Virus record (IMG/VR): IMGVR_UViG_3300020578_004316
Location: 1 to 52,932 of that record
From: a virus
Lineage: Duplodnaviria; Caudoviricetes
DNA: 52,932 nucleotides
Strand: one strand, 5' to 3'
Of the stretch, positions 24,205 to 45,318 are shown piece after piece. The position numbers and the translations under genes were made by a program. Under the pieces are notes generated by a model. It was not told the DNA's origin, ran no database searches, and saw nothing but the letters and a program-made list of their open reading frames with translations. Position 1 is the first letter of the stretch. Each line of letters begins with the position of its first letter.

Positions 24205-25110
24205 ATGCCCTCAATTAAAAAACCTAATCCAAAATCTCAATTAGAGATACAAAATAGCCAGATAGAACCATATGTGTTTCCTGAAACGAGTGAGTCTTAT
24301 GGTAACCCTAACATTCCTTCTAATTTTAACCAATTTACAGATAAAAAACAAAGCGGAATAGATTTTAATCGTTCTGAACAAATGTCATTTAAAGATGATA
24401 CTACTAAACCATTTACTGTAGGTTTACAAGATATAGATGAATCTATAATGTATTATTTTCAAAATGTTATTCGCCCAACAGTAATACAAAACGGAAATAG
24501 ATTAGCAGTACCTGTAATATATGGTTCACCTGAAAAGTGGAAATCAGTACAAAAAGATGGATATTACAAAGATAAAAATGGAGCTATTATGGCCCCGTTA
24601 ATTATGTTTAAAAGAGATACAATTGATAAAAACCGTTCTTTAACAAATAAATTAGACGCTAATACACCTCATTTGTATGCATCTTGTATGAAAACATATA
24701 ATTCAAAAAATGCATATTCAAATTTTAGCATATTAACAAATAGAATTCCTGTAAAACAGTATGTAGTTAATGTAGTACCTGATTATGTTACATTAACATA
24801 TTCATGTGCTATTCAAACATATTATGTTGAACAAATGAATAAAATTATTGAAGCAATCAACTACGCTTCAGACTCATATTGGGGAGACCCAGAACGCTTT
24901 AAATTTAAAGCATCTATTGATTCATATACTACAGCAATAGAAGTATCGGATTCAACAAACCGTATTATTAAAGGAACATTTTCAATTAAATTATTTGGAT
25001 ATATTATTCCGGATACTATTCAAAAAGAGATTACAGCTATTAAAAAATATAATAGCAAAGCTCAGGTTATCATTACAGCAGAAGTAGTTAATAATTTAAA
25101 TAGTAAATAA
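24205..25110 (+). CDS. Tail terminator / sheath stabiliser (gp15-like)
   Basis: VPVIYGSPEKW, EQMN.IIE motifs; lies before the sheath genes. Confidence 0.7.
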   Translation: MPSIKKPNPKSQLEIQNSQIEPYVFPETSESYGNPNIPSNFNQFTDKKQSGIDFNRSEQMSFKDDTTKPFTVGLQDIDESIMYYFQNVIRPTVIQNGNRLAVPVIYGSPEKWKSVQKDGYYKDKNGAIMAPLIMFKRDTIDKNRSLTNKLDANTPHLYASCMKTYNSKNAYSNFSILTNRIPVKQYVVNVVPDYVTLTYSCAIQTYYVEQMNKIIEAINYASDSYWGDPERFKFKASIDSYTTAIEVSDSTNRIIKGTFSIKLFGYIIPDTIQKEITAIKKYNSKAQVIITAEVVNNLNSK

Positions 25111-25111
25111 A

Positions 25112-25258
25112 ATGGCAGCAAAAGCAAAATCTCAATCAGTAATTTCGTTTGTCCGTAAACCTAAAAAAAGAAGACCAGGAGTTCATGCAAAATCAAAAAC
25201 TAGTAAAAACAAAAACAGCAAAAACTATGTAAAAATGTATGTTTCTCAAGGGAAATAA
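25112..25258 (+). CDS. Small highly basic protein (48 aa), not in ORF track
   Basis: Hand translation MAAKAKSQSVISFVRKPKKRRPGVHAKSKTSKNKNSKNYVKMYVSQGK; fills the gap exactly, with ATG 1 nt after the upstream stop. Confidence 0.75.
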   Translation: MAAKAKSQSVISFVRKPKKRRPGVHAKSKTSKNKNSKNYVKMYVSQGK

Positions 25259-25281
25259 TATATTTATAATAAAATAAATTT

Positions 25282-25545
25282 ATGGGAATAGTTTCGGATA
25301 AAAAGTTTTTAACAGACGAAGAAAAAAATACATTAAAAGAAATTCAACAAAAAACTCAAGTTTTAATACTAGAACTAGGTGAAATTGAAATGATTAAAAT
25401 TCAAATTGATAACAGACATCAAGCTGCTAAAGCATTTTTAGATGAATTATCACTCAAAGAAGAAAATTTTAATCAATTAATTGTTGAAAAATATGGTAAA
25501 TCTAGTATCAACCCAGAAACTGGTGAAATTACTGTATTAGGATAA
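25282..25545 (+). CDS. Small coiled-coil hypothetical protein
   Basis: Late motif upstream; ends KYG...IN.ETGE. Confidence 0.6.
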   Translation: MGIVSDKKFLTDEEKNTLKEIQQKTQVLILELGEIEMIKIQIDNRHQAAKAFLDELSLKEENFNQLIVEKYGKSSINPETGEITVLG

Positions 25546-25590
25546 TTTAATCTGAAATACACCATATTTATAATAAAATAATATATTACA

Positions 25591-27348
25591 ATGGCAGAAA
25601 CAATTGTATCACCTGGTGTATTAGCAATAGAAAATGACCAATCTTTTATTACACAAGCTCCTGTACAAGCAGGTGCAGCTATTATAGGACCAACGGTTAA
25701 AGGTAAAGTAGGTATTCCTACATTAGTTACAACATTTAGTGAATACCAAAATAAATTTGGCACTACTTTTTTAAGTGGAAGCCAAACCTATACCTACCTT
25801 ACCTCTATTTCAGCCTTTAATTATTTTAATAGTGGTGGTACTTCATTATTAGTAACTCGTGTAGTTAATGGTAGTACAACTACTAATTGGACTCCTGCAA
25901 CATCATCATTTATTTCTGCATCTGCTCATGCTGTTGGTGCTCCTTATAATACAGATGTATTTGTTTTAGAAACAATTTCTGAAGGAGAAATAATGAATAA
26001 TACAGGTCCTACAGGATCTAATGGAACTTTATTAAGCGGTTCAGCAAACAATTTTAGATGGCAAATAGTATCCCCAGATATTAATACCGGTACTTTTACA
26101 GTATTAATTAGACAAGGAAATGATACTACAAATTTTATGTCTATATTAGAAACTTGGGGCCCTGTATCTTTAGACCCATTTTCTGCAAATTATATTGAAA
26201 AGATAATAGGTAATCAAGTTGAAACTATTTTAAATGACCCAACAACAGGTGAATATTATGTTCAACTTTTAGGAAATTATCCAAATCAATCATCATATGT
26301 TAGAGTTAAACGAGTAAACCAAACTACACCAGATTATTTTGATAACAATGGCATTCCAAAAAATCAATTTACTGGTTCTTTACCTATTGTTAGCAGTGGA
26401 TCATTTGGAGATGGGAAAGGAAGCAATATCCCCACAGGGGTTGCAGGAGCATATTATGAAACTATCTCAGCAACTAATATCCAAGGCTTAACAGCTAATG
26501 ATTACACAGAATCTATTGCTTTATTAGCAAATAAAGACGCATACAATTATAATTTTATAACAGCTCCTGGGTTAATAGGAAATTCTTCATATCATTTTAA
26601 CACAGTTCAACAACTAATTACAATGGTTCAAGATAGAAGAGATGCTATGGCTATAGTAGATGTTGTTGGATATAATTCAAATTTAACCCCTGTAACTACC
26701 GCAGCTAGTGCTTTTGATACATCATACGCAGCAACTTATTGGCCTTGGTTAAAAACTATTGACCCCAATTATGGTAATCAAGTTTGGGTTCCCGCATCAA
26801 CAATGATCCCAGGTGTATATGCATTTAATGATAATGTAGCATTTCCTTGGTTTGCACCTGCAGGCATTAATAGAGGTCTTATGACAACAGTAGTTCAAAC
26901 TGAAAGAGTATTAACTCAAACAAATAGAGATTCACTTTATCAAGGAAATGTAAATCCAATTGCAACATTTCCTGGATCCGGGGTAACAGTATTTGGGCAA
27001 AAAACATTACAAAAGAAAAAAAGTGCTTTAGATCGTGTAAATGTACGACGTTTATTAATTGAACTTAAAAACTACATATCTCAAATAGGAGACACATTTG
27101 TATTTGAACAAAATGATGCTGTTACTAGGAATAATTTTGTAGCAGCTATTAACCCATATTTAGCTTCTGTTCAACAACAACAAGGTTTAACAGCTTTTAG
27201 AGTTATCATGGATGAATCAAATAACCCACCTTTAGTAGTAGATAATAATAAATTAGTAGGACAAATTTATTTACAACCTACTAGAACGGCTGAATTTATT
27301 ATATTAGACTTTAATATATTACCTACAGGTGCAACATTTCCTGCTTAG
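25591..27348 (+). CDS. Tail sheath protein 1 (gp18-like)
   Basis: SPGV...E.D, PWFAPAGINRG, GQKTLQ, DRVNVRRL, VFEQN, PTRTAEFI. Confidence 0.95.
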   Translation: MAETIVSPGVLAIENDQSFITQAPVQAGAAIIGPTVKGKVGIPTLVTTFSEYQNKFGTTFLSGSQTYTYLTSISAFNYFNSGGTSLLVTRVVNGSTTTNWTPATSSFISASAHAVGAPYNTDVFVLETISEGEIMNNTGPTGSNGTLLSGSANNFRWQIVSPDINTGTFTVLIRQGNDTTNFMSILETWGPVSLDPFSANYIEKIIGNQVETILNDPTTGEYYVQLLGNYPNQSSYVRVKRVNQTTPDYFDNNGIPKNQFTGSLPIVSSGSFGDGKGSNIPTGVAGAYYETISATNIQGLTANDYTESIALLANKDAYNYNFITAPGLIGNSSYHFNTVQQLITMVQDRRDAMAIVDVVGYNSNLTPVTTAASAFDTSYAATYWPWLKTIDPNYGNQVWVPASTMIPGVYAFNDNVAFPWFAPAGINRGLMTTVVQTERVLTQTNRDSLYQGNVNPIATFPGSGVTVFGQKTLQKKKSALDRVNVRRLLIELKNYISQIGDTFVFEQNDAVTRNNFVAAINPYLASVQQQQGLTAFRVIMDESNNPPLVVDNNKLVGQIYLQPTRTAEFIILDFNILPTGATFPA

Positions 27349-27394
27349 TAATATATTTTAAAAAAAAAATTGATATTTATAATAAAAAAATAAA

Positions 27395-29125
27395 ATGGCA
27401 AAATTCACAGTTTCTCCTGGAGTAGCAGTTAGCGAAATAGATAATACATTTTTAACAGGACAACCAGTTCAAGCAGGTGCGGCTATTATAGGACCAACAG
27501 TTAAAGGTCCAGTTGAAAAACCAACTTTAGTAACATCTTATTCAGATTTTCAAATGTTATTTGGAGATACTTTTATTAGTGGTGGTAATGCTTATTCATA
27601 TTTAACTTCAATTGCTGCTTACAATTATTTTAATTACGGTGGTACTTCATTGTTAGTGGCCCGTGTTGTTTCAGGATCATATTCTTCTGCTACTAGTAGC
27701 TACATGCCTACAGGATCTAGTGGCCCAACTTCAGGTTTCTCTCCATTTGTTTTAGAAACAATTTCTGAAGGTACCATTATGAACAACTCAGGTTCAGGAG
27801 CTTTAGGTTCATTGCTTCCAGGAAGTAAAGAAAATGTAAGGTGGGAAGTCACTAATGTAAATACTGGGTCAGGTACATTTAATGTATTGATTAGAAGAGG
27901 AGACGACACTCAAACTAATAAAATTGTTTTAGAGTCTTGGAACAATGTAAATTTAGATCCTAATTCATCTCGTTTTATTGCTCAAGTAATTGGAGATCAA
28001 AAATTAAACTATGATTCTGGCAATGTTCAAATGGTATTATCTGGAAGTTATCCAAATAATTCAAAATTTGTTCGTGTAAAAGAAGTAAATTATACTACTC
28101 CAAACTATTTAAATTCAAATGGAGTTGTAGCTAATCCATTATACACAGGGTCTCTTCCAGCAAATGGAAGTGGTTCTTTAGGTGGTGCTTTTGGAGGAGC
28201 CACAGGAACTGTTTTAATTTCATCAGCTATTAATTTTTATGAAAATATAAATTCATCTAATACTCAAGGATTAGTAGGAAGTGATTATAATACTATGATT
28301 GCTTTATTTGGTAATCAAGAAGCATATCAATTTAACCTTTTATTTGCCCCTGGATTATTAAACGATACTCATACTGGTCAAATTACAAATATTATTACTA
28401 ATACAATTGCTAGAGGTGATAGTATGTTTGTAGCAGATTTAGTAGCATATGGAAGTACAGTTTCTCAAGCTATTACACAAGCTCAAACTCGTGATACTTC
28501 ATATGCTGCTTCATATTGGCCTTGGGTTCGCATTATTGACCCATCAACAGGAAAACATATTTGGGCCCCAGCTTCAACTGTAATACCAGGTGTATACGCC
28601 TTTAACGATAAAGTATCTGCTCCTTGGTTTGCACCTGCAGGTATTAATCGTGGTGGTTTAGGTACAGTATTACAAGCAGAATTAAAATTAACTCAAAATA
28701 ATAGAGATTCTTTATATTCAAATAATATTAATCCAATTGCTACGTTACCTAAACAAGGTGTTGTAGTATTTGGACAAAAAACTTTACAAAAAGCAGATTC
28801 AGCTCTTGATCGTGTAAATGTAAGACGTTTATTAATTGAACTTAAAAATTATATCCGCCAAATTGCTGATACAATTGTATTTGAACAAAATACAATTCAA
28901 ACTAGAACTTCATTTTTAGCTAGAGTTAATCCATATTTAGAAGCTATCCAACAAAAACAAGGATTATATGCTTATAAAGTAATAATGGATGATTCAAATA
29001 ATGGACCAGCTGTAATTGATCAAAACCAATTAATTGGACAAATTTATATTCAACCAACACGTACCGCTGAATTTATTTCTTTGGATTTTATTTTACTCCC
29101 AACAGGAGCAGAATTTCCAGGGTAA
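27395..29125 (+). CDS. Tail sheath protein 2 (gp18-like paralogue)
   Basis: Same sheath motifs, complete ORF, own ATATTTATA motif. Confidence 0.95.
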   Translation: MAKFTVSPGVAVSEIDNTFLTGQPVQAGAAIIGPTVKGPVEKPTLVTSYSDFQMLFGDTFISGGNAYSYLTSIAAYNYFNYGGTSLLVARVVSGSYSSATSSYMPTGSSGPTSGFSPFVLETISEGTIMNNSGSGALGSLLPGSKENVRWEVTNVNTGSGTFNVLIRRGDDTQTNKIVLESWNNVNLDPNSSRFIAQVIGDQKLNYDSGNVQMVLSGSYPNNSKFVRVKEVNYTTPNYLNSNGVVANPLYTGSLPANGSGSLGGAFGGATGTVLISSAINFYENINSSNTQGLVGSDYNTMIALFGNQEAYQFNLLFAPGLLNDTHTGQITNIITNTIARGDSMFVADLVAYGSTVSQAITQAQTRDTSYAASYWPWVRIIDPSTGKHIWAPASTVIPGVYAFNDKVSAPWFAPAGINRGGLGTVLQAELKLTQNNRDSLYSNNINPIATLPKQGVVVFGQKTLQKADSALDRVNVRRLLIELKNYIRQIADTIVFEQNTIQTRTSFLARVNPYLEAIQQKQGLYAYKVIMDDSNNGPAVIDQNQLIGQIYIQPTRTAEFISLDFILLPTGAEFPG

Positions 29126-29171
29126 AAGTTTGAAATTTAGATATTTATAATAAAATTAAAATAGAAAACAA

Positions 29172-29660
29172 ATGGCAATTTTAAACCCAAACGAAATATT
29201 TTACACAGCGTTTGAACCAAAACAAACAAACCGTTTTATCCTTTATTTAGATGGGATTCCTTCATATCTTGTTAAACAAATAGGAGCTGTTTCTTTAACC
29301 CAATCTACAGTTACTCTTAATCACATTAATATTCAACGTTATGTGAAAGGAAAAACAAAATGGAATACTATCCAATTTACAATGTATGAATCAATTACTC
29401 CTTCTGGAGCCCAAGCAGTAATGGAATGGGTACGTTTAGGACATGAATCAGTAACAGGTAGAGATGGGTATTCTGATTTCTATAAAAAAGATCTTACATT
29501 TAACGTTTTAGGTCCTGTAGGTGATATTGTTTCTGAATGGATTATTAAAGGAGCTTTTATTACTGAAGTTAACTTTGGAGACTATAACTGGGATGATGAT
29601 GGAACCCCAGTAAATATCCAAGTAACAGTTCAACCTGATTACTGTATTTTAAACTACTAA
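29172..29660 (+). CDS. Tail tube protein (gp19-like)
   Basis: 162 aa after the sheaths; YKKD, W..KGAF..EVNFG..W motifs. Confidence 0.9.
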   Translation: MAILNPNEIFYTAFEPKQTNRFILYLDGIPSYLVKQIGAVSLTQSTVTLNHINIQRYVKGKTKWNTIQFTMYESITPSGAQAVMEWVRLGHESVTGRDGYSDFYKKDLTFNVLGPVGDIVSEWIIKGAFITEVNFGDYNWDDDGTPVNIQVTVQPDYCILNY

Positions 29661-29684
29661 TATTAGGTTAATAATTTATCAGGT

Positions 29685-29716
29685 AAAGCTCCAAAGAAAT
29701 TTGGGGCTTTTATTTT
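29685..29716 (+). terminator. Rho-independent terminator after tail tube
   Basis: AAAGCTCCAAA-GAAA-TTTGGGGCTTT hairpin with T-rich tail. Confidence 0.8.
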
Positions 29717-29731
29717 CTTTTAATATATTAA
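29700..29731 (+). promoter_or_regulatory. Bacteroidota sigmaA-like promoter (TTTG-N20-TATATTAA)
   Basis: Same spacing as the sites at 66, 699, 42987 and 45259; ATG lies 4 nt downstream. Confidence 0.65.
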
Positions 29732-29735
29732 GGCT

Positions 29736-32198
29736 ATGAAAAAAATTAATTTACTTTTATTTATACTACTAACAGGTTTTATTTATAGTCAATATTGCCC
29801 TTATTTAGGTCCTAATCAAATATTACCTTGTGGTGTAACTTCAACTACTTTAACCGCAGATTTAAGCCAATGTGGAGCAGGTAATAACCCTAATCAAACT
29901 ACAAATTATACAGTTTCTCAAATACTATATGTGCCCCAAGTTAATACAGGTACTTTAGTAGCCTTAAGTGATGACTCCCAATCAGGCACGTTTAACATTG
30001 GATTTACTTTTTGTTTTTATGGACAAACCTATACTCAGTTTCGAATAGGCTCAAATGGTTGGATCTCGTTGGGTGCAGGTGTACAGCCAACTACATTTAC
30101 AACACAAGCAATACCATCAGTAAACGCAGCAGTACCAAAAAATTGCATAATGGGCCCGTGGCAAGATTGGAATCCTAGTCTAGGCGGACAAATACGCTAC
30201 CAAACCTCAGGCACGGCTCCTTGCCGCAAATTAACAGTAAGTTGGATCGGAGTGCCTATGTTTTCGTGCACTAACTTACAAGGCACATTTCATATAGTAA
30301 TTTATGAATCAACTAATTATATTGAAAGTTATCTTGCTAATAAACCTGGTTGTAATCAATGGGCTAATGGTACTGCAGTGCATGGCGTACATAATGTTGT
30401 AGGAACGCAGGCAGTAACAGTACCTGGTAGAAATTCAACTCAATGGACTGCAGTAAATAATGCTTGGAGATGGACACCTAGTGGTGCACCTGTTTTGCCA
30501 ACTTTAGTTTGGTATCAAGTAGGAAATCCTGTTCCTATTGCTCAAAACGTAAATCAAATTACAGTTACACCTTCTCAAGGTGGAGCTTACTATACTTGTC
30601 ATTTGGAGTATCCGGCTTGTAATGCAGGTTGGGCAACTTGTAGTGCATTAGGTGGTGGACTAGGGCCTGATACTATTCAAGTTGTTCCGGGTCCACCAAA
30701 TTTAAATCAACCGAATTTTGTAGTAACAAATCCATTATGTAACGGAGATTGTAACGGATCTATTACAGTAAACCCAACAAACGGTACTCCTCCTATAGGA
30801 TATGTTTGGAGTAGCGGCCAAAATACCCAAACAATTAACAATCTATGTGCAGGAACTTATACAGTAACTGTAACAGATGCAAACAACTGCACTATTACAG
30901 CAAATACTACATTAATAGATCCACCTATTTTACAAGTGCCATTGATGGCAGCAACAAACCCTATTTGTTTTGGAGATTGTAATGGAACTGCAACAGCAAA
31001 CTCAATTGATGGTATTGCTCCATACACTTATTTATGGGGAGATGGACAAACAACACAAACCGCAACTAATTTATGTGCAGGAGCTTATAATGTTATAGTA
31101 ACAGATGCAAATGGGTGTCCTGCTTTAAATACTATTGCTTTAGTAAACCCTCCAATGGTTGTAGTAGGAAATATTACTTCACTAGATACAATCTGTTATT
31201 TATCTTCTAATGAAACATATTCAGTACCAAGTTTAGGTGCAGGATATTCTTACACTTGGTCAAGTGTTGGAAACATCACTTCAGGTCAAGGAACAAATAG
31301 TATTACAGTAGATTGGTCTCTATTTCCTGCAGGATTTATGCCTGGAGCTGTTAATGTTGTAGCGATAAATCAATTTGGTTGTACAAGCTTACCACAAGAT
31401 GTTAATGTTTATATTTTAAATGTTTTACCTACGATAGACTCGATTACTTCATTATGTGATTATAGTAATTGTGTAACATTAACTGGAGCTCCTGTTGGGG
31501 GAACATTTACAGGAAATGGAGTAAACGGGAATACATTTTGTCCTTCACCTTTATTAGCAGGAACCAATACAATAACATATACTTATGTGCAATCAAATTG
31601 TACTTTTGATACTACTCGCCAAATAACTGTTTATTCTAGACCTGTTATTTCATCTATACAAAATGATTTAGGAAACCTAACATCTGAATTTATAGAATTG
31701 TGTGAAGGCGATAGTATAGGAAGAATTTATAGTGCAACTGTTTTAGGAGGTGGAGATGTAGTGTGGATTTTAAACCAAGATAGTATTACAAACCCAATTT
31801 TACCTATTTCTTGGGATAGTTTTGGATCCTTTACATTTTCAGCTGTAGGATACCAAAACGGATGTGTATCATACCCAACATCTTATTTGACAACTATTCA
31901 AAGATGCCCTGAAGAATTAATTTATATCCCAAATACATTTACCCCTGATGGGAATGAAATCAACCATGCTTGGCACCCAGTCTTTACTTCAGGTTTTGAC
32001 CCACAAGATTTTTATTTAACTATCTATAACAGATGGGGAGAATTAATGTTTAAAAGTTATAATAGTACAGTTCCTTGGGATGGAACATACAACAATACAA
32101 AATGTCAAGATGGAGTTTATACTTGGGTTATAGTTTATGGAGACAAAAACACAGATAAAGAAACATTAATTAAAGGAAGTGTTACCCTTATTAGATAG
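29736..32198 (+). CDS. SprB-repeat surface protein with T9SS type-B (gliding-motility-associated) C-terminal domain
   Basis: Signal peptide, two SprB-type repeats (C.GDCNG...G..PY.Y.W...NLCAG.Y.V.VTDAN.C), PKD-like ITSGQGTNSITVDW, and CTD IPNTFTPDG..IN...IYNRWG...WDG...DGVY. Confidence 0.9.
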   Translation: MKKINLLLFILLTGFIYSQYCPYLGPNQILPCGVTSTTLTADLSQCGAGNNPNQTTNYTVSQILYVPQVNTGTLVALSDDSQSGTFNIGFTFCFYGQTYTQFRIGSNGWISLGAGVQPTTFTTQAIPSVNAAVPKNCIMGPWQDWNPSLGGQIRYQTSGTAPCRKLTVSWIGVPMFSCTNLQGTFHIVIYESTNYIESYLANKPGCNQWANGTAVHGVHNVVGTQAVTVPGRNSTQWTAVNNAWRWTPSGAPVLPTLVWYQVGNPVPIAQNVNQITVTPSQGGAYYTCHLEYPACNAGWATCSALGGGLGPDTIQVVPGPPNLNQPNFVVTNPLCNGDCNGSITVNPTNGTPPIGYVWSSGQNTQTINNLCAGTYTVTVTDANNCTITANTTLIDPPILQVPLMAATNPICFGDCNGTATANSIDGIAPYTYLWGDGQTTQTATNLCAGAYNVIVTDANGCPALNTIALVNPPMVVVGNITSLDTICYLSSNETYSVPSLGAGYSYTWSSVGNITSGQGTNSITVDWSLFPAGFMPGAVNVVAINQFGCTSLPQDVNVYILNVLPTIDSITSLCDYSNCVTLTGAPVGGTFTGNGVNGNTFCPSPLLAGTNTITYTYVQSNCTFDTTRQITVYSRPVISSIQNDLGNLTSEFIELCEGDSIGRIYSATVLGGGDVVWILNQDSITNPILPISWDSFGSFTFSAVGYQNGCVSYPTSYLTTIQRCPEELIYIPNTFTPDGNEINHAWHPVFTSGFDPQDFYLTIYNRWGELMFKSYNSTVPWDGTYNNTKCQDGVYTWVIVYGDKNTDKETLIKGSVTLIR

Positions 32199-32216
32199 TA
32201 CAATATTTATAATAGT

Positions 32217-32588
32217 ATGAAACTGAACCACTTACGTACTTTAGTTAAAGAAGAGCTTAATAAGCAATTAAATGAAAAATACCAAGATAAATTTAAAATG
32301 GTTGGTATGCTTATTTCTAACATTAAACAACGCCCCCAAAAAGAAATATTTTCCGACATCCGCTCTATCCCCGGAGTTACAGTAGCATCTTCAAAAGAAC
32401 CTATGCCATATAATGAACAAAATACAGAAAAATTTCAAACTATTTTAACTATTAAAGTAGATGGTCATCCTTGGATTACAAAAGGTGGTTTTGATCGTTC
32501 AAAAATGGAAGACATACGTAAAGAAATATTAAAAGTAGAAGGAGTTTTATCATATAATGTAAATCCTGATAATATCTCTTCTCTTTAA
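32217..32588 (+). CDS. Hypothetical protein, putative capsid-internal
   Basis: MKLNHLRTLVKEELNKQLNE leader; late motif upstream. Confidence 0.55.
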   Translation: MKLNHLRTLVKEELNKQLNEKYQDKFKMVGMLISNIKQRPQKEIFSDIRSIPGVTVASSKEPMPYNEQNTEKFQTILTIKVDGHPWITKGGFDRSKMEDIRKEILKVEGVLSYNVNPDNISSL

Positions 32589-32629
32589 TATATGTATATA
32601 GGACAATTAAGTTATATTAAATAAAAATT

Positions 32630-33358
32630 ATGGAAGAATTTAAATTACTAACTGAAACAGTTGAGTTACCCTCTAAAGGCTTACTATACCCTGAAGATTC
32701 TGAATTAGCAAAAGGTACTGTTGAAATTAAATACATGACTGCTAAAGAAGAAGATATTCTTACTAACCAATCATATATTAAAAACGGTACTGTACTAGAT
32801 AAATTAATGAAATCATTGATTGTATCGAAAATTAACTATGATGATCTATTAATAGGTGATAAAAATGCAATTATGGTTGCTGCCCGTATTTTAGGATATG
32901 GAGCTGAATACACTTTTAATTATTTAGGTGATTCACACACAGTAGATTTATCTCAAGTTGAAAACAAACCACTTAAAGAAGAATTATTTACAAGTCATGT
33001 AAATGAATTTACTTTTACTCTTCCTAAATCAGGTAATGTAGTTACATTTAAACTTTTAAGTCATAAAGACGAACAAGATATTACACGTGAACTAGAAGGT
33101 TTAAAAAAAATCAATAAAGATGCTTCCCCTGAACTTTCAACCCGTTTAAAATACCTAATTACCTCAGTAGAAGGAAAACGAGATAAAAAAGATATTCGAG
33201 AGTTTGTTGACAATTATCTTCTCGCCCAAGACTCCAGGGCATTAAGAGAATATGTTAGAGAAATTCAACCCGATGTTGATTTAACTTTTTTTCCCGACGG
33301 GAGTAACGATAGAATCAATATCCCAATTGGGATTAGCTTTTTTTGGCCTGACCTATGA
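32630..33358 (+). CDS. Baseplate hub / tail assembly chaperone (gp26-like)
   Basis: VELPSKG..Y, T.KEEDIL, FF near C-terminus; lies before tape measure. Confidence 0.8.
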   Translation: MEEFKLLTETVELPSKGLLYPEDSELAKGTVEIKYMTAKEEDILTNQSYIKNGTVLDKLMKSLIVSKINYDDLLIGDKNAIMVAARILGYGAEYTFNYLGDSHTVDLSQVENKPLKEELFTSHVNEFTFTLPKSGNVVTFKLLSHKDEQDITRELEGLKKINKDASPELSTRLKYLITSVEGKRDKKDIREFVDNYLLAQDSRALREYVREIQPDVDLTFFPDGSNDRINIPIGISFFWPDL

Positions 33359-33359
33359 A

Positions 33360-33638
33360 ATGGCTCCCCAAGCTAGGGCTGCTGTATTTACACAAATCCA
33401 CGAAATAGTTTTTCACGGTAAAGGAGGATATGATTGGGATACAATTTATAACATGCCTATATGGCTTCGCCGTTTTACATTTTCAAAAATTCAAGACTTC
33501 TACACTGAAGAAAAAAATGCCCTTGAAAACAAAGGAGGTGATGGAAAGAAAACCGTCATTAATTCAGATGGTACAATAAAAGCTCCTGAATTACTTCAAA
33601 AAGCATTACAAAATAAAAAATCTCCTAAATATAGCTAA
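33360..33638 (+). CDS. gp51-like hub assembly protein (possibly frameshift extension of upstream gene)
   Basis: H....Y.W..IYNMPIWLR resembles the gp51-like MxPWER family; reading frame is open from upstream of 33327. Confidence 0.6.
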   Translation: MAPQARAAVFTQIHEIVFHGKGGYDWDTIYNMPIWLRRFTFSKIQDFYTEEKNALENKGGDGKKTVINSDGTIKAPELLQKALQNKKSPKYS

Positions 33639-33676
33639 AAATATTAATTTTCAATATTTATAACAAAATCATTTAA

Positions 33677-36085
33677 ATGGCTGATGATATAAAACAAATA
33701 GAAGAAAAACTTAATAAACTTAAGGCTTCATTAGATAAAGTTGGCCAAAAAGCCCTAGAAAGAATTATAGCAGCACTAAAATCAGGAGGTGCTGGATTAG
33801 ATGAATGGAATGATCAATTAGCTACATTTCAAGATAAAGTAGATAAAGTTAATAGTTCTTTAAGTTATGTAGCCCAATCATTTAAGGATTCTGTTAATGA
33901 ATTATCTAGACAAAACAAGTACCTTACTTCTTCTCGAAGCATTATTAGCAAAATTTCCACTACAGCCCGTGAAGTCCTTTCAGCAAGAAGAGGAGAAACT
34001 TCTTTAGATGAAAAAAGTGTAAAACTAGCTCAAGAAAAAATAAAGTCACAAAGAGAAGAACTTAAACAAGCCAAAGAATCAGGTAATTTAACCCAAGCAC
34101 AACAAAAAGAAATCCAATCAGTTATAGATTCTTTAGATGATTATGAAAAAGGTCTTAAGGGAGCTTTAAAAACCCATAAAGAAATAAATAAACAATTGGG
34201 TATTATTCCTCAAGTATTTGGTGGATTAGATAAAGGCTTAAGTAAATTAGGGATGTCTGGGTTAGGCATTTCTGAAGCATTATCAAAAACTCAAAAATTA
34301 GGACAAGAAGCAGCAAGTTTAGGAGATAAAGAATTTAAAAAGTTTAGTGCTTCTAAAACATTTTTTAAAGAATTAGGTAGTAATTTTTCTGAAATTGCTT
34401 CAAAAGCTAATATCATCCAATTTGTTATTGTAGGATTAATTGATGGGTTTATGTCTGCGGACAAACAATCCGGTGAATTAGCTAAAACATTAGGAATAAC
34501 TTATGATACAGCTAGTAATCTTAGAAAAGAATTTGCAGCAGTAGCTAATACCTCATTAGATTCTAATGTAACTGTAAAAGGTTTACAAGAATCCTTAGCT
34601 GCTGTTAATACCGAGTTAGGAACGTCTGCTAGAATATCTACAGAAGAATTAACTCTTATGACTAAGCTTAATAAACAAGCTGGTATATCTTTAGAAACTC
34701 AAGCCAAATTACGTACTACTGCTGTTGCTACTGGTGAAACATATAAAAATTTTGTAAAATCTTTTCAAGATTCTGCAAAAAGTGCTAAATTTCAAGCGGG
34801 TATTGCTCTTGATACTAAAAAGTTAATGACTGATATGGTCAATGTTTCAAATAGAACTAAATTATCTATTGAAGGAGGAGCAGCAGGATTAGCTAAAGCA
34901 GCAGTAGCTGCAAAAGTTATGGGAAGTGACTTAGAAAAAGTAGCAGCAATTTCAGATAAACTTCTTAATTTTGAACAATCTATTGAAGCCGAATTAAGTG
35001 CTGAATTATTAACTGGTAAAGATATAAATTTAGAAAAAGCAAGACAAGCCGCCTTAAACAATGATTTAGCAACAGTAGCAGAAGAAATCACTAAACAAGC
35101 TGGATCAGCAGCAGAATTTAGTAAGATGAATAGGCTTCAACAAGAAGCTATGGCTGATGCTGTTGGTATGACCGCAGATCAATTAGCTGATACTTTAGTT
35201 GAACAAGAAGCTTTAAAATCGATAGGGAGAGATTTAAACGAAGAAGAACAAGCAGCATTTGAAGCAGCTAAGGCTAAACATGGAGTAGAAAAAGCTTCAG
35301 CAATGTTAAAAAAAGATGGAATAGGGGATCTTCTTAAAGAACAATCTAACCAAGAAAAGTTTACAGCAACTATAGAAAAATTAAAAGAAATTTTTACTCA
35401 AGTTGGAGATGCTTTAATGCCTATATTTACTATGCTAGCAGATATTGCTACTACTATTATGCCTGTTATAAATTTTTTATTAGCCCCTTTAATAGAAGGA
35501 TTTAGACTTATAGGTAATCTTGTGAAAGGATTTGTTAAAGGTTTAAAAGAAGGTCAACCTCTTATGGTTGCTTTAGCAGCTGGATTAACAGCTATGTTAG
35601 CTCCAACACTAATGACTGCTATATTTAGTATATTTAGAGCATTTTCCATGATTCCTTTTGGATTAGGCATCCCACTAGCAATTACTGCAGTAGCTGGAAT
35701 GATAAGTTTAGCTACTCAAGCAAAAACAGCTAATGACTTAATGTCAGCCCCCCCAGGATACGGTAAACGCACTCTATTAGGACCAGAAGGAGCAATCCAA
35801 TTAAACGATAAAGATACAGTTATTGCCGGTACAAATTTATTTGGAAACGACGTTAAATCTGAACCAGGTAAAGCTACTCAAATGGGTAAAAAAGGAGAAA
35901 TTAAATTAGGTGGTGATTCTTCAGCAGTAGTAAACGCTATTATGGAGTTAAGGAAAGACGTAAATGCTTTAGCTAATCGTCCAATAAATGTACAAATTGA
36001 TGGAAAAAATGTAACTAAAGCTATTTACTCTAATCCTAATACTGTAGGAGATGAAAGTAGAACAAAAGCTTACAAAATATTTTAA
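33677..36085 (+). CDS. Tape measure protein
   Basis: 802-aa Ala/Lys/Gln-rich helical protein with C-terminal hydrophobic segments, following the chaperone genes. Confidence 0.85.
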   Translation: MADDIKQIEEKLNKLKASLDKVGQKALERIIAALKSGGAGLDEWNDQLATFQDKVDKVNSSLSYVAQSFKDSVNELSRQNKYLTSSRSIISKISTTAREVLSARRGETSLDEKSVKLAQEKIKSQREELKQAKESGNLTQAQQKEIQSVIDSLDDYEKGLKGALKTHKEINKQLGIIPQVFGGLDKGLSKLGMSGLGISEALSKTQKLGQEAASLGDKEFKKFSASKTFFKELGSNFSEIASKANIIQFVIVGLIDGFMSADKQSGELAKTLGITYDTASNLRKEFAAVANTSLDSNVTVKGLQESLAAVNTELGTSARISTEELTLMTKLNKQAGISLETQAKLRTTAVATGETYKNFVKSFQDSAKSAKFQAGIALDTKKLMTDMVNVSNRTKLSIEGGAAGLAKAAVAAKVMGSDLEKVAAISDKLLNFEQSIEAELSAELLTGKDINLEKARQAALNNDLATVAEEITKQAGSAAEFSKMNRLQQEAMADAVGMTADQLADTLVEQEALKSIGRDLNEEEQAAFEAAKAKHGVEKASAMLKKDGIGDLLKEQSNQEKFTATIEKLKEIFTQVGDALMPIFTMLADIATTIMPVINFLLAPLIEGFRLIGNLVKGFVKGLKEGQPLMVALAAGLTAMLAPTLMTAIFSIFRAFSMIPFGLGIPLAITAVAGMISLATQAKTANDLMSAPPGYGKRTLLGPEGAIQLNDKDTVIAGTNLFGNDVKSEPGKATQMGKKGEIKLGGDSSAVVNAIMELRKDVNALANRPINVQIDGKNVTKAIYSNPNTVGDESRTKAYKIF

Positions 36086-36115
36086 TATACAATATTTATA
36101 ATAAAATAAATAACC

Positions 36116-36412
36116 ATGGGAATCTTAACTAAATTAACAACTCAAGGATCTGCTTTTACAGCATATGATGGAACTACTCCAACAGTAAACCCACTTGCAA
36201 CCCAACAATCTAAGTTGCATGCTGATGGAAACCAACCAGGATATTCATTAAATGGTGCTAATGCTGGTCAAGTAACGGCAGATTATAATGCTTATCAAGA
36301 TGGTACTCCAAATCAAATTCCATTACCTTCATTATTAGATATAAATGGAGTTATCCCACCTGTATCACCTGGGGGGCAAGGTTTACCATATTTGAATAAC
36401 TTACCACAGTAA
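36116..36412 (+). CDS. Hypothetical virion protein
   Basis: Late motif upstream; ends PYLNNLP. Confidence 0.55.
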   Translation: MGILTKLTTQGSAFTAYDGTTPTVNPLATQQSKLHADGNQPGYSLNGANAGQVTADYNAYQDGTPNQIPLPSLLDINGVIPPVSPGGQGLPYLNNLPQ

Positions 36413-36422
36413 AATTAATTAA

Positions 36423-38531
36423 ATGGGTCTTTTACTGAAATTAAATAATGGGGATACCCAATTAAAATCACTTAAATTTGGTAAGGACAGACCAGGAGGG
36501 GGAGATAGTGGACAACCTTATATTCCTCAAAACATACAAACAGGTATTCAAAATCCTGCTTTTTATAACGATTTTGTTATACGTGGAGGAATTGAAGCCC
36601 CTTTAAGTGCAGCTGAAGACGTTGCTCGTTTAACAAAATACTTTATAAACATAAAAAACCCAAGTGGTCTTTTATTTATAGCAAAACAAAACCTACTTTC
36701 TCGAGTAGGAACAAAAACAGAAGCATCTAAAGGTTTAGGTTATGCTGGAGGTTTTTTAAATGAAGGAGCATACACACCATTATCTACATTAGCTGAAGCT
36801 GGGATAGTATGGGCTGGAGGCCATGTGAACAAACAAGGTTTAGATCCTACTGGTTTATTTTCATTTGCTTCTATTAACAAATATCAAGATGTTATTTCCC
36901 AAAATCAACTTACTGGGAGAATTGATTTAGAAAATAATAGATTAGTTAGGCTTTCCACTTTAATCCCAGTAAATAGAGGAATAAATAATTTTGCAAATGT
37001 TGTAGAATATAAATTAAACCCCCAATTAGAAAATGATGTTCTAATTTCCTATGGAGGTGGATCTGATTCTGTTTTAGGAATAGGAAAAACTAAAATTAAG
37101 TTTGCAACTGGAAATGATGGTGTCCCTTTAAAAACATTGATACCTAAACCAAAAGATTATTTAGTAGATAAACCATATGACCCAACCAATGAAGATAAAT
37201 TCCAGTTACCTATCAATGCATCTTCAGATTATAACGAATACATAAAAAATTTTTCAAGTAATTTTGCTGAAAATGATTTAACCAAAAACGGAAAAAATTC
37301 GTTTACACAAAATTTTATAGTAGACGTTTACGAATCTGAGTCTCTTAAAAGTAATAGTAATATAGGAAAAGGTTCATGGACACAACAAAATTTTGTCAAT
37401 CAACCTCCTAATCCAAATGCAACTACATTAGAGGATTTTAGACAAATACTAAAACCAACAGAAAGCCCTCAATATACCTTTTTAAGCCTTTCCCCAAGCT
37501 ATAAAAGATATATGATAGAATCTGATGATACTTCAATTTCAGCAAATGCTACTGGATATGGAAGGATAGGTTTACGTAGCCCTGGACAAAAAGGAGATAT
37601 ATCAAATTATGTCCAAGGTAAAAAAGATCCTGCGGGAAATATATTAGGTCCTGTTGATTTTATTAATGCTTTGCCTATATATAAATCAAGTAACGTAACA
37701 TCTAAAAATGAATATAAAAATGATTTAATTAAATTTAGAATAGATATTTTAGATAATGATGAGAATACTAGATTTTTTATGCATTTTAGAGCATTTTTAG
37801 ATTCTTTTTCAGATTCATACGGGGGTGATTGGAAATCTTTAAATTACATGGGAAGAGGAGAAAATTTTTATAAATACGATAAATTTTCTAGAAGTATTAG
37901 TGTAATATTTATTGTAGCTGCTTTATCAAAACAAGAACTTATACCAATGTATAAGAAATTAAATTATTTAGCTTCTTCATTAGCCCCATCATATTCGAGT
38001 AAAGGATATTTAAGAGGAAATATTGCATACCTTACAGTAGGAGCATGGTGTTATGAACTCCCAGGAATAATTAATAGTGTAGAATATTCAGTTCCTGAAG
38101 AAGCTCCTTGGGAAATAGCCATTCCTATTAAAGATGAAAATGGTAAAGGAGTTGGAACTCAATTTGATGACGATACTGTAAGAGAAATGCCTCATATGAT
38201 AAAAGTAACTATGAAGTTTACTCCTATTCATACATTTAGACCTGAAATTATGGATATTGAAACTAAGAAAGATATTAACCAAACTGATAACCCATTAAAT
38301 GATTCTAATGACTATGGAAATCAAAGATATATTAGCTTAGAAACATCATATAATGTAATTAAACAAAAACCTGAAGATAAAAAAGCAGAAAAAATATCTT
38401 TAGATATCCCATTAAAACCACTTACACAAACTAACTTACTTTTACAACAACCTGTTACTAAACCTACAGGCCCCGTTACTACAGTTTTAAATGAGGGGGA
38501 AATTAATAATGATTTTTCTTTATTTGTATAA
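36423..38531 (+). CDS. Baseplate / tube-initiator-like protein
   Basis: FRAFL...SDSY...W....Y.GR.E..Y.Y....RSIS tube-fold motif; position. Confidence 0.6.
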   Translation: MGLLLKLNNGDTQLKSLKFGKDRPGGGDSGQPYIPQNIQTGIQNPAFYNDFVIRGGIEAPLSAAEDVARLTKYFINIKNPSGLLFIAKQNLLSRVGTKTEASKGLGYAGGFLNEGAYTPLSTLAEAGIVWAGGHVNKQGLDPTGLFSFASINKYQDVISQNQLTGRIDLENNRLVRLSTLIPVNRGINNFANVVEYKLNPQLENDVLISYGGGSDSVLGIGKTKIKFATGNDGVPLKTLIPKPKDYLVDKPYDPTNEDKFQLPINASSDYNEYIKNFSSNFAENDLTKNGKNSFTQNFIVDVYESESLKSNSNIGKGSWTQQNFVNQPPNPNATTLEDFRQILKPTESPQYTFLSLSPSYKRYMIESDDTSISANATGYGRIGLRSPGQKGDISNYVQGKKDPAGNILGPVDFINALPIYKSSNVTSKNEYKNDLIKFRIDILDNDENTRFFMHFRAFLDSFSDSYGGDWKSLNYMGRGENFYKYDKFSRSISVIFIVAALSKQELIPMYKKLNYLASSLAPSYSSKGYLRGNIAYLTVGAWCYELPGIINSVEYSVPEEAPWEIAIPIKDENGKGVGTQFDDDTVREMPHMIKVTMKFTPIHTFRPEIMDIETKKDINQTDNPLNDSNDYGNQRYISLETSYNVIKQKPEDKKAEKISLDIPLKPLTQTNLLLQQPVTKPTGPVTTVLNEGEINNDFSLFV

Positions 38532-38858: not shown

Positions 38859-41800
38859 ATGTCAATAATAGGACAGGAAATAGAAAGTTATACTATAAGC
38901 CAAATTAATGCAAGACAAAAGTTACATGGAAGTGGAACTTCTACTAGTAGAACACCACAACAAATTAGTGTATTAAATTCAAATTCTTCTTGGGTAAAAT
39001 TAGCATCTGGAATTTCAGTAAATGCTAGTAGATTAAGAGATATACAAGTAAGTACATCTTATAGTGGGATGGAGTTAGCAAAAAATAATGTTTTATTTGG
39101 AGGAACTTCTAAATTAGTAGGAGGACAAAGACTTCAACAAAAAGAAGGATTTTTACCCTACCAATCCAATAGTTCATATTTACATGGAGATTTTGGATAT
39201 TCTCCTATGCCCGGAATTATAAGTGCTGATATAAAAGCATTAAATAGGGGTTCGCTTAAAAAAGCAACAGTTAAACTTACTGCTAATAATAAACAACAAT
39301 TTGATGTTATTGATCTTCTTTATCTAAGATTAGGATATACTGTTTTACTTGAATGGGGAAATAGTATGTACACTTCTAACGGTACCGATAGACAATTAGT
39401 TCAACAAACCATTGTAGAAGATGAAAAAAGATTTTTTAACCCAGAATATGGAAAAGGAAAGTCTCATAGAGACATACTTTTCGTAATAGAGTATTATCGA
39501 GATAAATATAAGGGAAATTATGATGGGCTTTTAGGTAAAGTATCAAATTTTAATTGGACTTTTCAATCTGATGGGTCATATGATATAGAAATTACTATAA
39601 TAAGTTTAGGTGATGTAGTTGAATCTTTAAAAACTAATATTTCATCAAACCGACAATTAAGCCTATTTATTGAAAATACTCTTGCTGCTAACCCCTCAGG
39701 AAGTGAAGGAGGAAATAATCTTATTGAAGAAAATGCTGATTCTAATGATATAGCAGCAATGTTATATTGTTGGAAATATGTTAATAAAGATTTATTAACT
39801 TATCAATCCTATGAAGATAGCATTTATATAAGACGTCCAGATGAAGGAGATAGATTTGTAGGAGCATTTTTAGAAACCTCAACTACTCTTACTTCTACAT
39901 TTGTTACATATAGATTTGCTTACCTAGCTTATGGATATGATATAGAAATATACCCAGACTTAAGTCCAGATACTTACTATAAATCTGTTGAAATACCTTA
40001 TGATCTTAATATTTATCCAAATCACGAAGAAGAAGCTCAAAAAGAACGTAAATCAAGAGATGATAAATTAATAACGGATGGAAAAAATCGATTAAGTTTT
40101 GTTAATCCTAGTGGTATTCAAGATTATAAAAGAGTTTTAGCAGGTTATGAAAGTTTAGGGAATAAAAAAACAACTATTGATAGTCCTTTAACTAATTTTA
40201 GTAAAAAAGATGCATGTTTTATAACTACTGAACCTGATAAACAATTTTATTTAAGATTTGGAGCTTTATTACAGTATTTAAGAACTACTATTATTCCTAA
40301 AGTAGATACATCTAATTCGAATTATAAGAATAAACCACCTGTATTTAGTATAAATACTGATGTATATGGAACTGGAGACTTAGGAAATTATATGTATTCG
40401 TTACCAAATCAAATTTCTTTAGATCCAAGAGTTTGTATAGTAAGAAATGATAAATTTCAAACTTCTAATGGAATAACAGAAGTATACAGACATTTATTGC
40501 CTTTTAGATCTGAAGATTATTCATCAAAACCTAACCCTAATAAGGCATATATTATGAATATATATCTAAATTTTGAATTTATAATAAATTGCATTAATAA
40601 TAATTTAGATGAAAAAGGAGATATTGGAATATTTGGATTTTTAAAAGCAATATGTGATGGTTTAAATAAATCTTTAGGAGGAATAAATAATTTAGAACCT
40701 ATCATAAATGAAGATACTAATACTCTTTATATTATTGATACTACTCCTATCCCTGGTATAGGTTCTGAAACAGCTTCTTATACATTACAATTATTTGGGT
40801 ATAATGCTTCTACTTCTAACTTTGTTAGAAACGTTGATTTAAAAACAGCTATCACCCCAGAATATGCAACTATGATTACAGTAGGAGCAACCGCAGGAGG
40901 ATATGTTAAAGGAATAGAAGCTACAGCATTTTCAAAATGGAATGATGGGTTAACCGATAGATTTAAAGAAAAACTTATCCCGGGAAATGAAAATTCTCAA
41001 GAAGAAAACGGTGAAGATGAAGCTGCATCAAACTATATTAATAAATTTTTATCGGCTAAAGCAGGCAATGCTTCTCGTTATGGGTTTAAAGGGAACATAG
41101 TAAGTACCAATGCTAAAAACCTTCAAATAGACCCAGGTGCTATTGAAAAAAATATCTCAGTTGTAACAGAATACTATAAATATTTAATTGCATCTCAAAA
41201 GAACCAACAAGGTGGAACTGTTGGGTTTATTCCGTTTAAATTGAATTTTTCTATGGATGGAATATCGGGTATAAAGATATACAACAAATTACACGTTGAT
41301 ACTCGTTTTTTACCTAAAGCATATGGAACTGAACTAGATTTAATTGTAACAGGAGTTAGCCATAAATTATCAAATGATGACTGGGAAACAAATATTGAAA
41401 CTACATTAATTCCTAAAACAAATGAATTAAAAGATTTAGTTATTACAGCTGAAGCTATAGTAGAAGATATAAACAATAACCCACCTAAATACGATAAACC
41501 AACTATGACTCCACCTCCTAGTTTAATTCAAGCTATGAAAGAATATGGTATAACTGATCCTTTAGAAAAAGCTCATTTTTTAGCTCAATGCAACACTGAA
41601 TCCGCTAGATTTTCTGCAACAACCGAATTTGCTTCTGGAGAAGCATATGAAGGTAGAAAAGATTTAGGCAATACATCTCCTGGAGACGGAAAAAAATATA
41701 AAGGAAGAGGTTATATTCAATTAACAGGAAAATCAAATTACATTAGTTATAATGACTATCTTAAAACTAAAGGTAAAACAGATGATGTAGTAAAAAATCC

Positions 41801-42980: not shown

Positions 42981-42986
42981 TTTTAG

Positions 42987-43018
42987 TTTGGCTTTTTAAA
43001 ATTTAATTAGTATCTTTA
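42987..43018 (+). promoter_or_regulatory. Bacteroidota sigmaA-like promoter (TTTG-N20-TATCTTTA)
   Basis: One mismatch from the TTTG...TAnnTTTG consensus; marks the start of the replication module. Confidence 0.7.
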
Positions 43019-43022
43019 CAGC

Positions 43023-45252: not shown

Positions 45253-45258
45253 AAATAG

Positions 45259-45290
45259 TTTGGCTATTTAAAAAAAGGTTATTATATTAA
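45259..45290 (+). promoter_or_regulatory. Bacteroidota sigmaA-like promoter (TTTG-N20-TATATTAA)
   Basis: Shares TAGTTTGGCT with the 42984 site; 20-nt spacer. Confidence 0.65.
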
Positions 45291-45318
45291 ACGTTGTAAA
45301 CAATAAAAATAGTTATAT

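Follow-up and report, generated by a model that had tools for sequence, protein, structure and literature searches.

A predicted type B cargo protein of the type IX secretion system encoded in the tail module of a Bacteroidota phage

The stretch of DNA analysed here, called the window in the following, is the whole of IMG/VR virus record IMGVR_UViG_3300020578_004316, a linear sequence of 52,932 bases which is about 32% complete according to CheckV. Between the tail tube gene and a conserved gene, p123, it carries an open reading frame (ORF) for an 820-residue protein (29736..32198, plus strand, stop codon included), which Pfam and NCBIfam profiles point to as a type B cargo of a type IX secretion system (T9SS). 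We refer to it as the cargo gene. All large ORFs of the window lie on the plus strand, as do the parts of the slot between tube gene and p123 that are located below.

Domain architecture of the cargo protein

The cargo protein contains 29 Cys in its 820 residues and starts with a predicted Sec signal peptide (residues 1-18, 29736..29789), called by eye from the residue pattern: an initial MKK, a hydrophobic stretch and the junction IYS|Q, which leaves Gln at position +1. Gln at +1 after a signal peptidase I site has been described as the 'Q-rule' of Bacteroidetes (PMC5837995), and a ...[SGTN]-Q-[YN]-C-P cleavage junction was kept in every complete phage homologue listed. The opposite end of the protein (residues 730-820, 31923..32195) matches the type B T9SS C-terminal sorting domain (CTD). 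Model TIGR04131 of NCBIfam was matched at the extreme C-terminus over positions 2 to 85 of its 85 (41.6 bits, cut-off 35), and for CHU_C of Pfam the match covered residues 730-816 (50.8 bits, cut-off 27). Invariant columns occur in this domain in the alignment of homologues, and a ...TLIR-type C-terminal end was kept in every complete viral copy. The type A sorting domain TIGR04183 stayed below its cut-off in the cargo protein (19.5 bits versus 23, at internal residues 361-384), and the type A domain PF18962 was absent from records G000, G001 and G002.

The part between these two export signals is modular. Homologue alignments and an AlphaFold model delimit an all-beta N-terminal domain with 11 Cys (residues 20-322, 29793..30701), which is the best-conserved part of the protein. 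It is followed by the SprB-repeat region (residues 323-470, 30702..31145), in which two stretches matched PF13573 (E 3.6e-14, 52.5 bits, cut-off 28); the copy number of this repeat differs among homologues, and the region is absent or shorter in several of those aligned. A PKD-like domain comes next (residues 476-551, 31161..31388; PF19408 PKD_6, 42.9 bits, cut-off 25), and a match to the Hoc-like immunoglobulin-like (Ig-like) PHROG 2973 was found at residues 422-516 (E 2.5e-8). The remaining stalk (residues 552-729, 31389..31922) gave no Pfam match and aligns among homologues. Together, these findings support the view that the protein carries every sequence feature of a cargo of Sec and the type B branch of the T9SS.

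A preliminary description of this DNA had claimed a Cys-rich 820-residue protein with a Sec signal peptide, PKD/Ig-like domains and a complete type B CTD, and had proposed profile searches with SprB, CHU_C and TIGR04131. The ORF exists as described, inspection gave the same signal peptide, and all three profiles as well as PKD_6 scored above their cut-offs. Its label 'SprB-like adhesin' is overstated: with 820 residues and two SprB repeats the cargo protein is not an orthologue of SprB, and its best-conserved part is an unrelated N-terminal domain. SprB comprises about 6,500 residues, most of them in SprB repeats, and is encoded together with sprF.

AlphaFold, run with an alignment of 43 sequences, modelled the N-terminal domain as all-beta (predicted local distance difference test score, pLDDT, 91.6; predicted template modelling score, pTM, 0.86), and its core (residues 69-254, 186 residues) folded alone with a pLDDT of 90.9. 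A Foldseek search with the domain (303 residues) gave no match at E <= 0.001, and VIA-align returned generic Ig-like matches only, covering a discontinuous subdomain of about 80 residues with Z <= 7.3. For the isolated core all Foldseek matches had E >= 0.75, and the best VIA-align match (Z 5.5, root-mean-square deviation 4.0 over 138 residues) was under the level which the tool itself regards as meaningful; the weak resemblances were to supersandwich domains of the galactose-mutarotase-like type in glycan phosphorylases, polysaccharide lyases and YidC. When PDB sequences were searched with a profile of the core alignment, there was no hit at E <= 1. These failed searches do not show that the fold is new. 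The nidogen-like domain NIDO (PF06119) matched weakly in 7 of the 43 aligned homologues (best E 2.6e-4), the window copy being unmatched, and the ESM Atlas listed mostly viral clusters for the domain besides one Bacteroidota NIDO cluster (0.87). In the N-terminal alignment, some Trp, Asp, Glu, His and Arg residues are invariant. The N-terminal beta domain is probably the working end of the protein, presented on the SprB-repeat/PKD stalk; its many invariant Trp and acidic residues and the weak fold resemblances suggest that it probably binds a ligand, possibly a glycan.

Residence in the phage genome and the insertion slot

The cargo gene is a resident phage gene and neither an assembly chimera nor freshly acquired host DNA. 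Its GC content at third codon positions (GC3) was 0.169, compared to 0.181 +/- 0.064 in the 32 other genes of the window, and its GC content at second positions (GC2) was 0.485, compared to 0.351 +/- 0.071. The local GC content of 0.399 at 30001-31000, as against about 0.31, is therefore raised because of second codon positions, while GC3 is phage-like. The ratio of nonsynonymous to synonymous substitution rates (dN/dS) had a median of 0.21 among 31 distinct full-length sequences and ranged from 0.13 to 0.30 against 30 homologues. By region it was lowest in the N-terminal domain (0.155), followed by the CTD (0.22), the PKD/Ig region (0.23), the SprB repeats (0.31) and the signal peptide (0.43). 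Genes for terminase, portal, capsid, sheath, tube, tape measure and replication proteins flank the cargo gene on both sides. The order tube gene, cargo gene, p123 recurs in 30 other viral contigs, among them a genome of 166,116 bases with direct terminal repeats and 100% CheckV completeness (G001).

When words were sampled from 27000-34500, at least half of them were present in each of seventeen lake-water metagenome runs, possibly all of one campaign. Both junctions, for which the preliminary description had proposed read mapping, were examined in Logan contigs from four runs that are not flagged as possible sources. Contigs of two runs crossed from the cargo gene into p123 with 0 differences (X5 record 23, 30308-32320; X7 record 31, 31647-32758), and two further X5 contigs, records 20 (29414-29714) and 21 (29685-30008), overlapped across the upstream junction. 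No single Logan contig spanned from the tube gene to the cargo gene; short contigs break at a conserved terminator. Short-sided Logan joints found at 90% likeness were treated as relatives or repeats.

This terminator, an 11-pair stem followed by a T run (29685..29710), lies directly behind the tube gene. In insert-free relatives (e.g. L060, L089) the order is tube stop codon, terminator, late motif and p123. In insert-bearing relatives the tube stop codon is followed by the same terminator, ATATATTAA, 4 nucleotides (nt), the gene with its stop codon, the late motif and p123. From these two layouts it follows that the insert is placed between the tube terminator and the promoter motif of p123, and because insert-free relatives retain the terminator, we assign it to the tube gene. 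Behind the cargo gene, whose stop codon is 18 nt from p123, no terminator was found in this interval. The earlier claim that the cargo gene is insulated by a terminator is overstated: the terminator is real, but it is that of the tube gene.

The late motif ATATTTATAAYAAAAT (<=2 mismatches) occurs 10 times in the window, compared to 2.06 expected, and none of 100 shuffles reached 10. Nine of these matches lie on the plus strand a short way upstream of genes, among which are the two sheath genes, the tube gene, p123 and the tape-measure gene; the match before p123 (ATATTTATAAT..., 32203..32218) has 2 mismatches to the 16-mer and stands before p123 in insert-free relatives as well. None of the 10 precedes the cargo gene. 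Its start is preceded by a promoter-like motif, TTTG-N20-TATATTAA (29700..29731, exact match), whose TTTG falls within the 3' arm of the terminator and which ends 4 nt before the ATG. Two other exact matches complete the three of the window, all on the plus strand and all before genes: one at 699-730 upstream of a DNA-binding protein gene (ATG 745) and one at 45259-45290 upstream of the gene for single-stranded DNA-binding protein (SSB). The spacer before the gene at 43023 reads TTTG-N20-TATCTTTA, 4 nt, ATG and so has the same geometry as that of the cargo gene. Bacteroidetes promoters have the -33/-7 form TTTG ... TAnnTTTG. The resemblance of TTTG-N20-TATATTAA to this form lends some support to a contrast between host-type and late-type motifs. 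The former proposal that a host-type promoter stands here in place of the late motif agrees with the missing late motif and the exact match; its wording of a gene under its own promoter is overstated, since the promoter is a putative one, a motif match with the ATG 4 nt on.

Repeated elements also occur elsewhere in the window. Positions 1-109 and 614-730 share a repeat of about 90 nt, consisting of a hairpin with a T run and then a TTTG-N20-TATATT(T/A)A motif; the copy at 1-109 continues into a late motif, and the one at 614-730 stands before the gene for the DNA-binding protein. A common AGTTTGGCT-N-TTTAAAA element at 42981-43022 and 45253-45318 lies upstream of two replication-region genes and overlaps the TTTG of the host-type promoter motif.

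The cargo gene is optional among otherwise collinear relatives, 7 of which have the tube gene joined directly to p123. A wider survey of 63 tube-seeded loci with a visible downstream gene found 50 empty slots and 13 inserts. Two of the latter are shorter members of the cargo family (L061, L105). The slot of L063 (L063:3865-5627) contains three small ORFs which all have their own signal peptide; PKD_6 matched in the second and CHU_C (53.8 bits) in the third, and the set looks like an adhesin split into pieces. The ORFs of the other 10 inserts are unrelated; five are small and have a hydrophobic N-terminus. The slot is thus a hotspot for accessory genes.

The upstream neighbour of the slot, the tail tube gene (29172..29660), matched PHROG 4542 (E 4.4e-24) and has at least 598 relatives in viral contigs; the downstream neighbour p123 (32217..32588) is conserved in relatives and has neither a Pfam nor a PHROG match. 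PHROG matches over the window as a whole were to large terminase, portal, prohead protease, major head protein, PhoH and a head-tail adaptor, to two tail sheath genes in tandem, the tail tube, the tape measure and parts of the baseplate, to SSB, a UvsX-like recombinase, an exonuclease, a DnaB-like helicase and ribonucleotide reductase, and to a 1059-residue protein with a lysin domain. This last protein (38859-42038), in which about the last 170 residues match endolysin/lysozyme-type PHROGs, is probably a tail-associated lysin. The sheath paralogues lie in tandem at 25591-27348 and 27395-29125 with a late motif before each; relatives seeded with the tube protein vary in this, some with two sheath genes and many with a single one. 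Two ORFs (32630-33358 and 33327-33638), the first with weak baseplate-hub matches, overlap by 32 nt directly upstream of the tape-measure gene, at the usual place of a tail-assembly-chaperone frameshift pair. No tRNA genes were found in the window. By its major head protein the nearest cultured phage is Flavobacterium phage vB_FspM_immuto (160 kb, 56% identity), and megablast of positions 25000-37000 against cultured and deposited phages gave no match. The best explanation of these findings is a T4-like myophage of freshwater Bacteroidota with a genome of roughly 165 kb, in which the cargo gene forms an accessory, moron-like cassette.

Homologues in other phages and in bacteria

Homologues of the cargo protein were found at 58 loci of viral contigs with 47-87% identity, apart from one with 37% over a short piece. 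The tube gene lies directly upstream in 24 of them, and the contig of L012 begins inside the gene and continues into p123. At 33 of the 58 loci, none of ten tail-module proteins of the window matched within the locus. The 110 neighbouring ORFs scanned at six such loci included many small ones without a match; recognisable neighbours included, at L008, GroEL and thymidylate synthase, at L050 thymidylate synthase as well as phosphoesterases, and at L033 topoisomerase II and a sugar epimerase. A search of a protein collection with residues 20-325 retrieved 1451 proteins at E <= 1e-5, and the best 120 of these were all at least 70% identical and metagenomic, the named ones being called 'gliding motility-associated-like protein'. 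Searching cultured and deposited phages with the protein by tblastn gave two records of uncultured huge phages only. These, deposited as 'uncultured phage', are LR745206.1 (635 kb; 25822-27963, 48.6% identity over 98% of the protein) and LR756502.1 (642 kb; 517963-519387, 39.9% over 34%).

Some of the genomes that carry homologues are only distantly related to the window. The major head protein and the tail tube protein of G002 (158,320 bases, direct terminal repeats, 100% complete) and G010 (169,328 bases) are 56-58% and 50-51% identical to those of the window, and those of G003 (290,887 bases) 42% and 40%, respectively; records G004 and G011, both flagged 'provirus', gave no usable capsid or tube match. 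The cargo family is thus spread over several large-phage lineages. In G002 the gene lies at least 70 kb from the tube gene, and its product (L008) is 86% identical to that of the window in the N-terminal domain, 63% in the SprB region, 50% in the PKD/Ig region and 61% in the CTD. Across the lineages compared, the N-terminal domain retains 71-86% identity while stalk and CTD fall to 37-61%. Such a conserved tip across distant backbones implies that the N-terminal domain was moved between phages or held constant across them, and, judged from these identities, stalk and sorting domain track the phage lineage.

Among species-representative bacterial genomes we confirmed 265 relatives. The best 80 of these all come from metagenome-assembled genomes (MAGs), nearly all labelled as Bacteroidota (Crocinitomicaceae, Flavobacteriales, Sphingobacteriaceae, Chitinophagaceae) besides two contigs labelled Akkermansia; they show 33-62% identity on the best segment and are often 1040-1430 residues long. 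The MAG contexts scanned were chromosomal, and the homologues often stand beside other CHU_C proteins. Their relation to the phage copies was analysed in an unrooted tree of the N-terminal domain from a quick IQ-TREE search (82 distinct rows, duplicates removed), in which a branch with 99% support in the Shimodaira-Hasegawa-like approximate likelihood ratio test (SH-aLRT) separates the 43 viral rows, together with L139 and L165, from the other 37 MAG rows. This split and the 58 viral loci are the outcome of the phylogeny and prevalence check which had been suggested at the outset.

The two MAG copies on the viral side differ in their surroundings. L139 (L139:8001-10448, Crocinitomicaceae MAG) nests among phage copies and is flanked by enolase, carA, rplQ, rpoA and rpsD; it represents either the donor lineage or a phage-to-host transfer. 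L165 (L165:8001-9326) is short, very divergent and on a very long branch in the tree; its neighbours, namely a resolvase, two NUMOD1 proteins and a protein with collagen repeats, give the region a mobile look.

Export route and possible function

Type B cargo proteins are held at the cell surface by PorP-like proteins (Gorasia et al. 2022, PMC9143113). In Flavobacterium johnsoniae, as described by Paillat et al. 2025 (PMC12618676), an sprF-like gene adjoins 9 of 12 type B cargo genes, three orphan cargos share the unlinked shuttle Fjoh_1677, and five CTD motifs (A-E) are required for secretion. The preliminary description had seen no PorP/SprF gene in the window, and our search agrees: PF11751 matched in none of five phage records, namely the window and G001-G004, and these four G records have a completeness of 95-100%. 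As a positive control, five MAGs searched in the same way yielded 17-22 PorP/SprF copies each, which makes the negative result in the phages meaningful. Among the MAG loci scanned, PorP/SprF occurred within two genes of the homologue at L157 only. CHU_C ORFs numbered one per phage record and two in G004. The second of G004, a 436-kb 'provirus' record, lies at 62662-62925 (L222) in an open frame of 198 residues and is possibly a nearly cargo-less sorting domain. Given the phages without PorP/SprF and the precedent of orphan cargos, the phage protein fits the orphan pattern and would need a host shuttle.

We therefore favour, as the likely explanation, that the phage encodes an orphan type B cargo which would be exported through Sec and the T9SS of the host, with a PorP/SprF-like shuttle, likewise the host's, keeping it on the infected cell. 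Every step of this path is deduced from sequence and from published work on type B proteins. Transcription would start at the non-late, host-type promoter or reach the gene by read-through of the tube terminator. After Sec export, signal peptidase I would cut before Gln19, and the protein, with its 29 Cys, would fold in the periplasm with disulfides. The host T9SS translocon would then recognise the C-terminal type B domain, and hand-over to a shuttle, proposed to be the host's because the phage encodes none, would retain the protein on the surface of the infected cell.

Several points weigh against this explanation. The signal peptide was assigned by eye and the tree stems from a quick search only. 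The promoter is a putative one, proposed from a motif match: with <=1 mismatch TTTG-N20-TATATTAA occurs 8 times compared to 3.26 +/- 1.76 expected, and 2 of 100 shuffles reach 8; moreover, with the ATG only 4 nt behind the motif, the mRNA would be leaderless or nearly so. The gene lies within the tail module and codes for Ig-like domains of the decoration-protein kind. One of the loci apart from the tail module, L034, is less clearly non-structural, since at a distance of 3.5-5 kb upstream of the homologue two ORFs gave matches to peptidase-type PHROGs with a tail or lysis label. Finally, the copies of G004 and G011 may lie in host DNA.

Parts of this picture have precedents. The idea that a phage encodes T9SS cargo and hijacks the system is already published for type A domains: Bellas et al. 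2020 (PMC7468147) described Cryophage, a Bacteroidota phage with variable accessory genes that carry a T9SS sorting domain, and proposed hijack of the host T9SS with possible roles in competition or superinfection. The window gene resembles these in being an accessory gene of a Bacteroidota phage whose product has a T9SS sorting domain. The Cryophage domains, as described there, are of type A and sit on an endoglucanase, a GH39 protein and a PA14 protein, whereas the domain found here is of type B, which uses PorP/SprF-like shuttles and not PorV with attachment to anionic lipopolysaccharide (A-LPS). Moreover, the cargo found here is adhesin-like, has an uncharacterised N-terminal domain and belongs to a family present in several large-phage lineages. 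Our literature search, with subscription journals outside its reach, found no phage-encoded type B cargo and only the type A case of Bellas et al. 2020. Phages of Porphyromonas gingivalis have been reported to encode Q-rule signal peptides (PMC10367356).

Among bacterial proteins, Fjoh_1123, Fjoh_1720 as well as Fjoh_4934 of F. johnsoniae are alike by their description in PMC12618676, with a Sec signal, a TIGR04131-type CTD and no adjoining sprF-like gene. These orphans are secreted via a shuttle encoded elsewhere, whereas the present cargo is on a phage and the shuttle would be that of the host. SprB, a very large protein by its description in PMC12618676, is a binding partner of SprF at the surface of the cell (PMC9143113) and shares SprB-type repeats and a type B CTD with the cargo protein, which differs from it in having 820 residues, 2 SprB repeats, no sprF-like gene found and a conserved part that is an unrelated N-terminal domain; nothing ties the phage protein to the gliding track. 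Like phage morons and superinfection-exclusion surface proteins, the cargo gene is optional: it follows closely on a terminator between two conserved late genes, has a promoter-like motif that differs in class from theirs and codes for a predicted exported envelope protein. Unlike them it has no terminator of its own, is equal to the phage in composition (GC3 0.169 versus 0.181), resides in a lytic-type T4-like genome instead of a prophage and would use the T9SS as export route.

What the phage would gain from such a protein can be outlined in two ways. Flavobacteria with mutations in the T9SS or in gliding are broadly resistant to phages, and SprB and RemA are presumed receptors (PMC9804748). 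This makes competition for receptors or shuttles attractive, an idea which also fits the non-late promoter class: the cargo protein might block or mask T9SS-dependent phage receptors or shuttles and thus act in superinfection exclusion. A changed adhesion of the infected cell is equally possible. A more far-reaching version, which we regard as doubtful though worth stating, is a T9SS-dependent system of superinfection exclusion or surface takeover: made before the late phase, the cargo would use its lineage-specific CTD to capture a host shuttle and with it a place on the surface or gliding track otherwise taken by adhesins that serve other phages as receptors, and the conserved N-terminal domain, as one exchanged between unrelated large phages, would bind a common surface glycan or an incoming virion. 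If true, this would be the first phage function working by competition for type B shuttles.

Alternatively, the protein could pass through Sec and the T9SS and then be released as a soluble binding protein or polysaccharide enzyme. The isolated N-terminal core is weakly similar to galactose-mutarotase-like domains (best Z 5.5), some Trp, Asp, Glu, His and Arg residues are invariant, and type B CTDs carry a separate targeting signal that decides the final location (Paillat et al., PMC12618676). We consider this fate unlikely, as the fold matches are under the meaningful level of the tool, type B cargo studied so far stays PorP-bound at the surface according to PMC9143113, and a long SprB/PKD stalk would be typical of surface-anchored proteins.

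A second alternative sees in the gene a mere passenger, a host surface-protein gene carried without function for the phage. It would agree with the homologues on Bacteroidota MAG chromosomes (33-53% identity), with the slot as a hotspot for unrelated inserts and with the chromosomal L139 nesting among phage copies. The gene has, however, a phage-like GC content by codon position and a dN/dS of 0.13-0.30 against 30 homologues, 58 viral loci preserve the whole architecture with identities of 47-87%, it is far better conserved between lineages than capsid and tube, and the phage copies separate from 37 of 39 MAG copies in the tree. A passenger is therefore quite improbable.

Still less credit is due to a structural or decoration protein of the tail, in which the Ig-like, PKD and CTD beta-sandwiches would serve as structural or adhesion modules. 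Such a role is suggested by the location between tail tube and tape-measure genes, by the Hoc-like Ig match (E 2.5e-8) and by the Ig-like part of the N-terminal model, which resembles Hoc and other Ig domains with Z 6-7. Tailed-phage particles assemble in the cytoplasm, however, and all complete homologues keep a predicted cleavable Sec signal and a T9SS sorting domain under purifying selection. A virion role is also made very unlikely by the missing late motif of the neighbouring structural genes, by the optional nature of the gene (7 relatives have the same tail genes without it) and by its non-tail neighbourhoods in other phage lineages, as in G002 at 70 kb or more from the tube gene; the former view that this is probably not a virion gene is thus upheld.

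A chimera of host DNA in a phage contig, for which the raised local GC at 30001-31000 and the Logan breaks at the terminator might speak, is refuted as far as the data allow by the GC3 equal to that of the phage, by the same arrangement in 30 other viral contigs including the complete 166-kb genome, by the contigs of two other runs spanning from the gene to p123 without differences and by the X5 overlap upstream.

With the favoured explanation, a host-shuttled orphan cargo, infected cells probably acquire a surface altered by the phage. In flavobacteria, the main phage-resistance loci have been described as those of the gliding machinery and of surface proteins secreted by the T9SS (PMC9804748), and a phage gene that feeds its own protein into the T9SS would, if true, be a direct viral rewriting of the host surface during infection. 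Since the family is large, is subject to purifying selection and has spread through several lineages of large phages in lakes and other waters, its effect, whatever its nature, would be ecologically common. The cargo family would also offer a natural test of how type B domains choose their shuttles, with a tip that stays 72-86% identical and a CTD and stalk that diverge by lineage.

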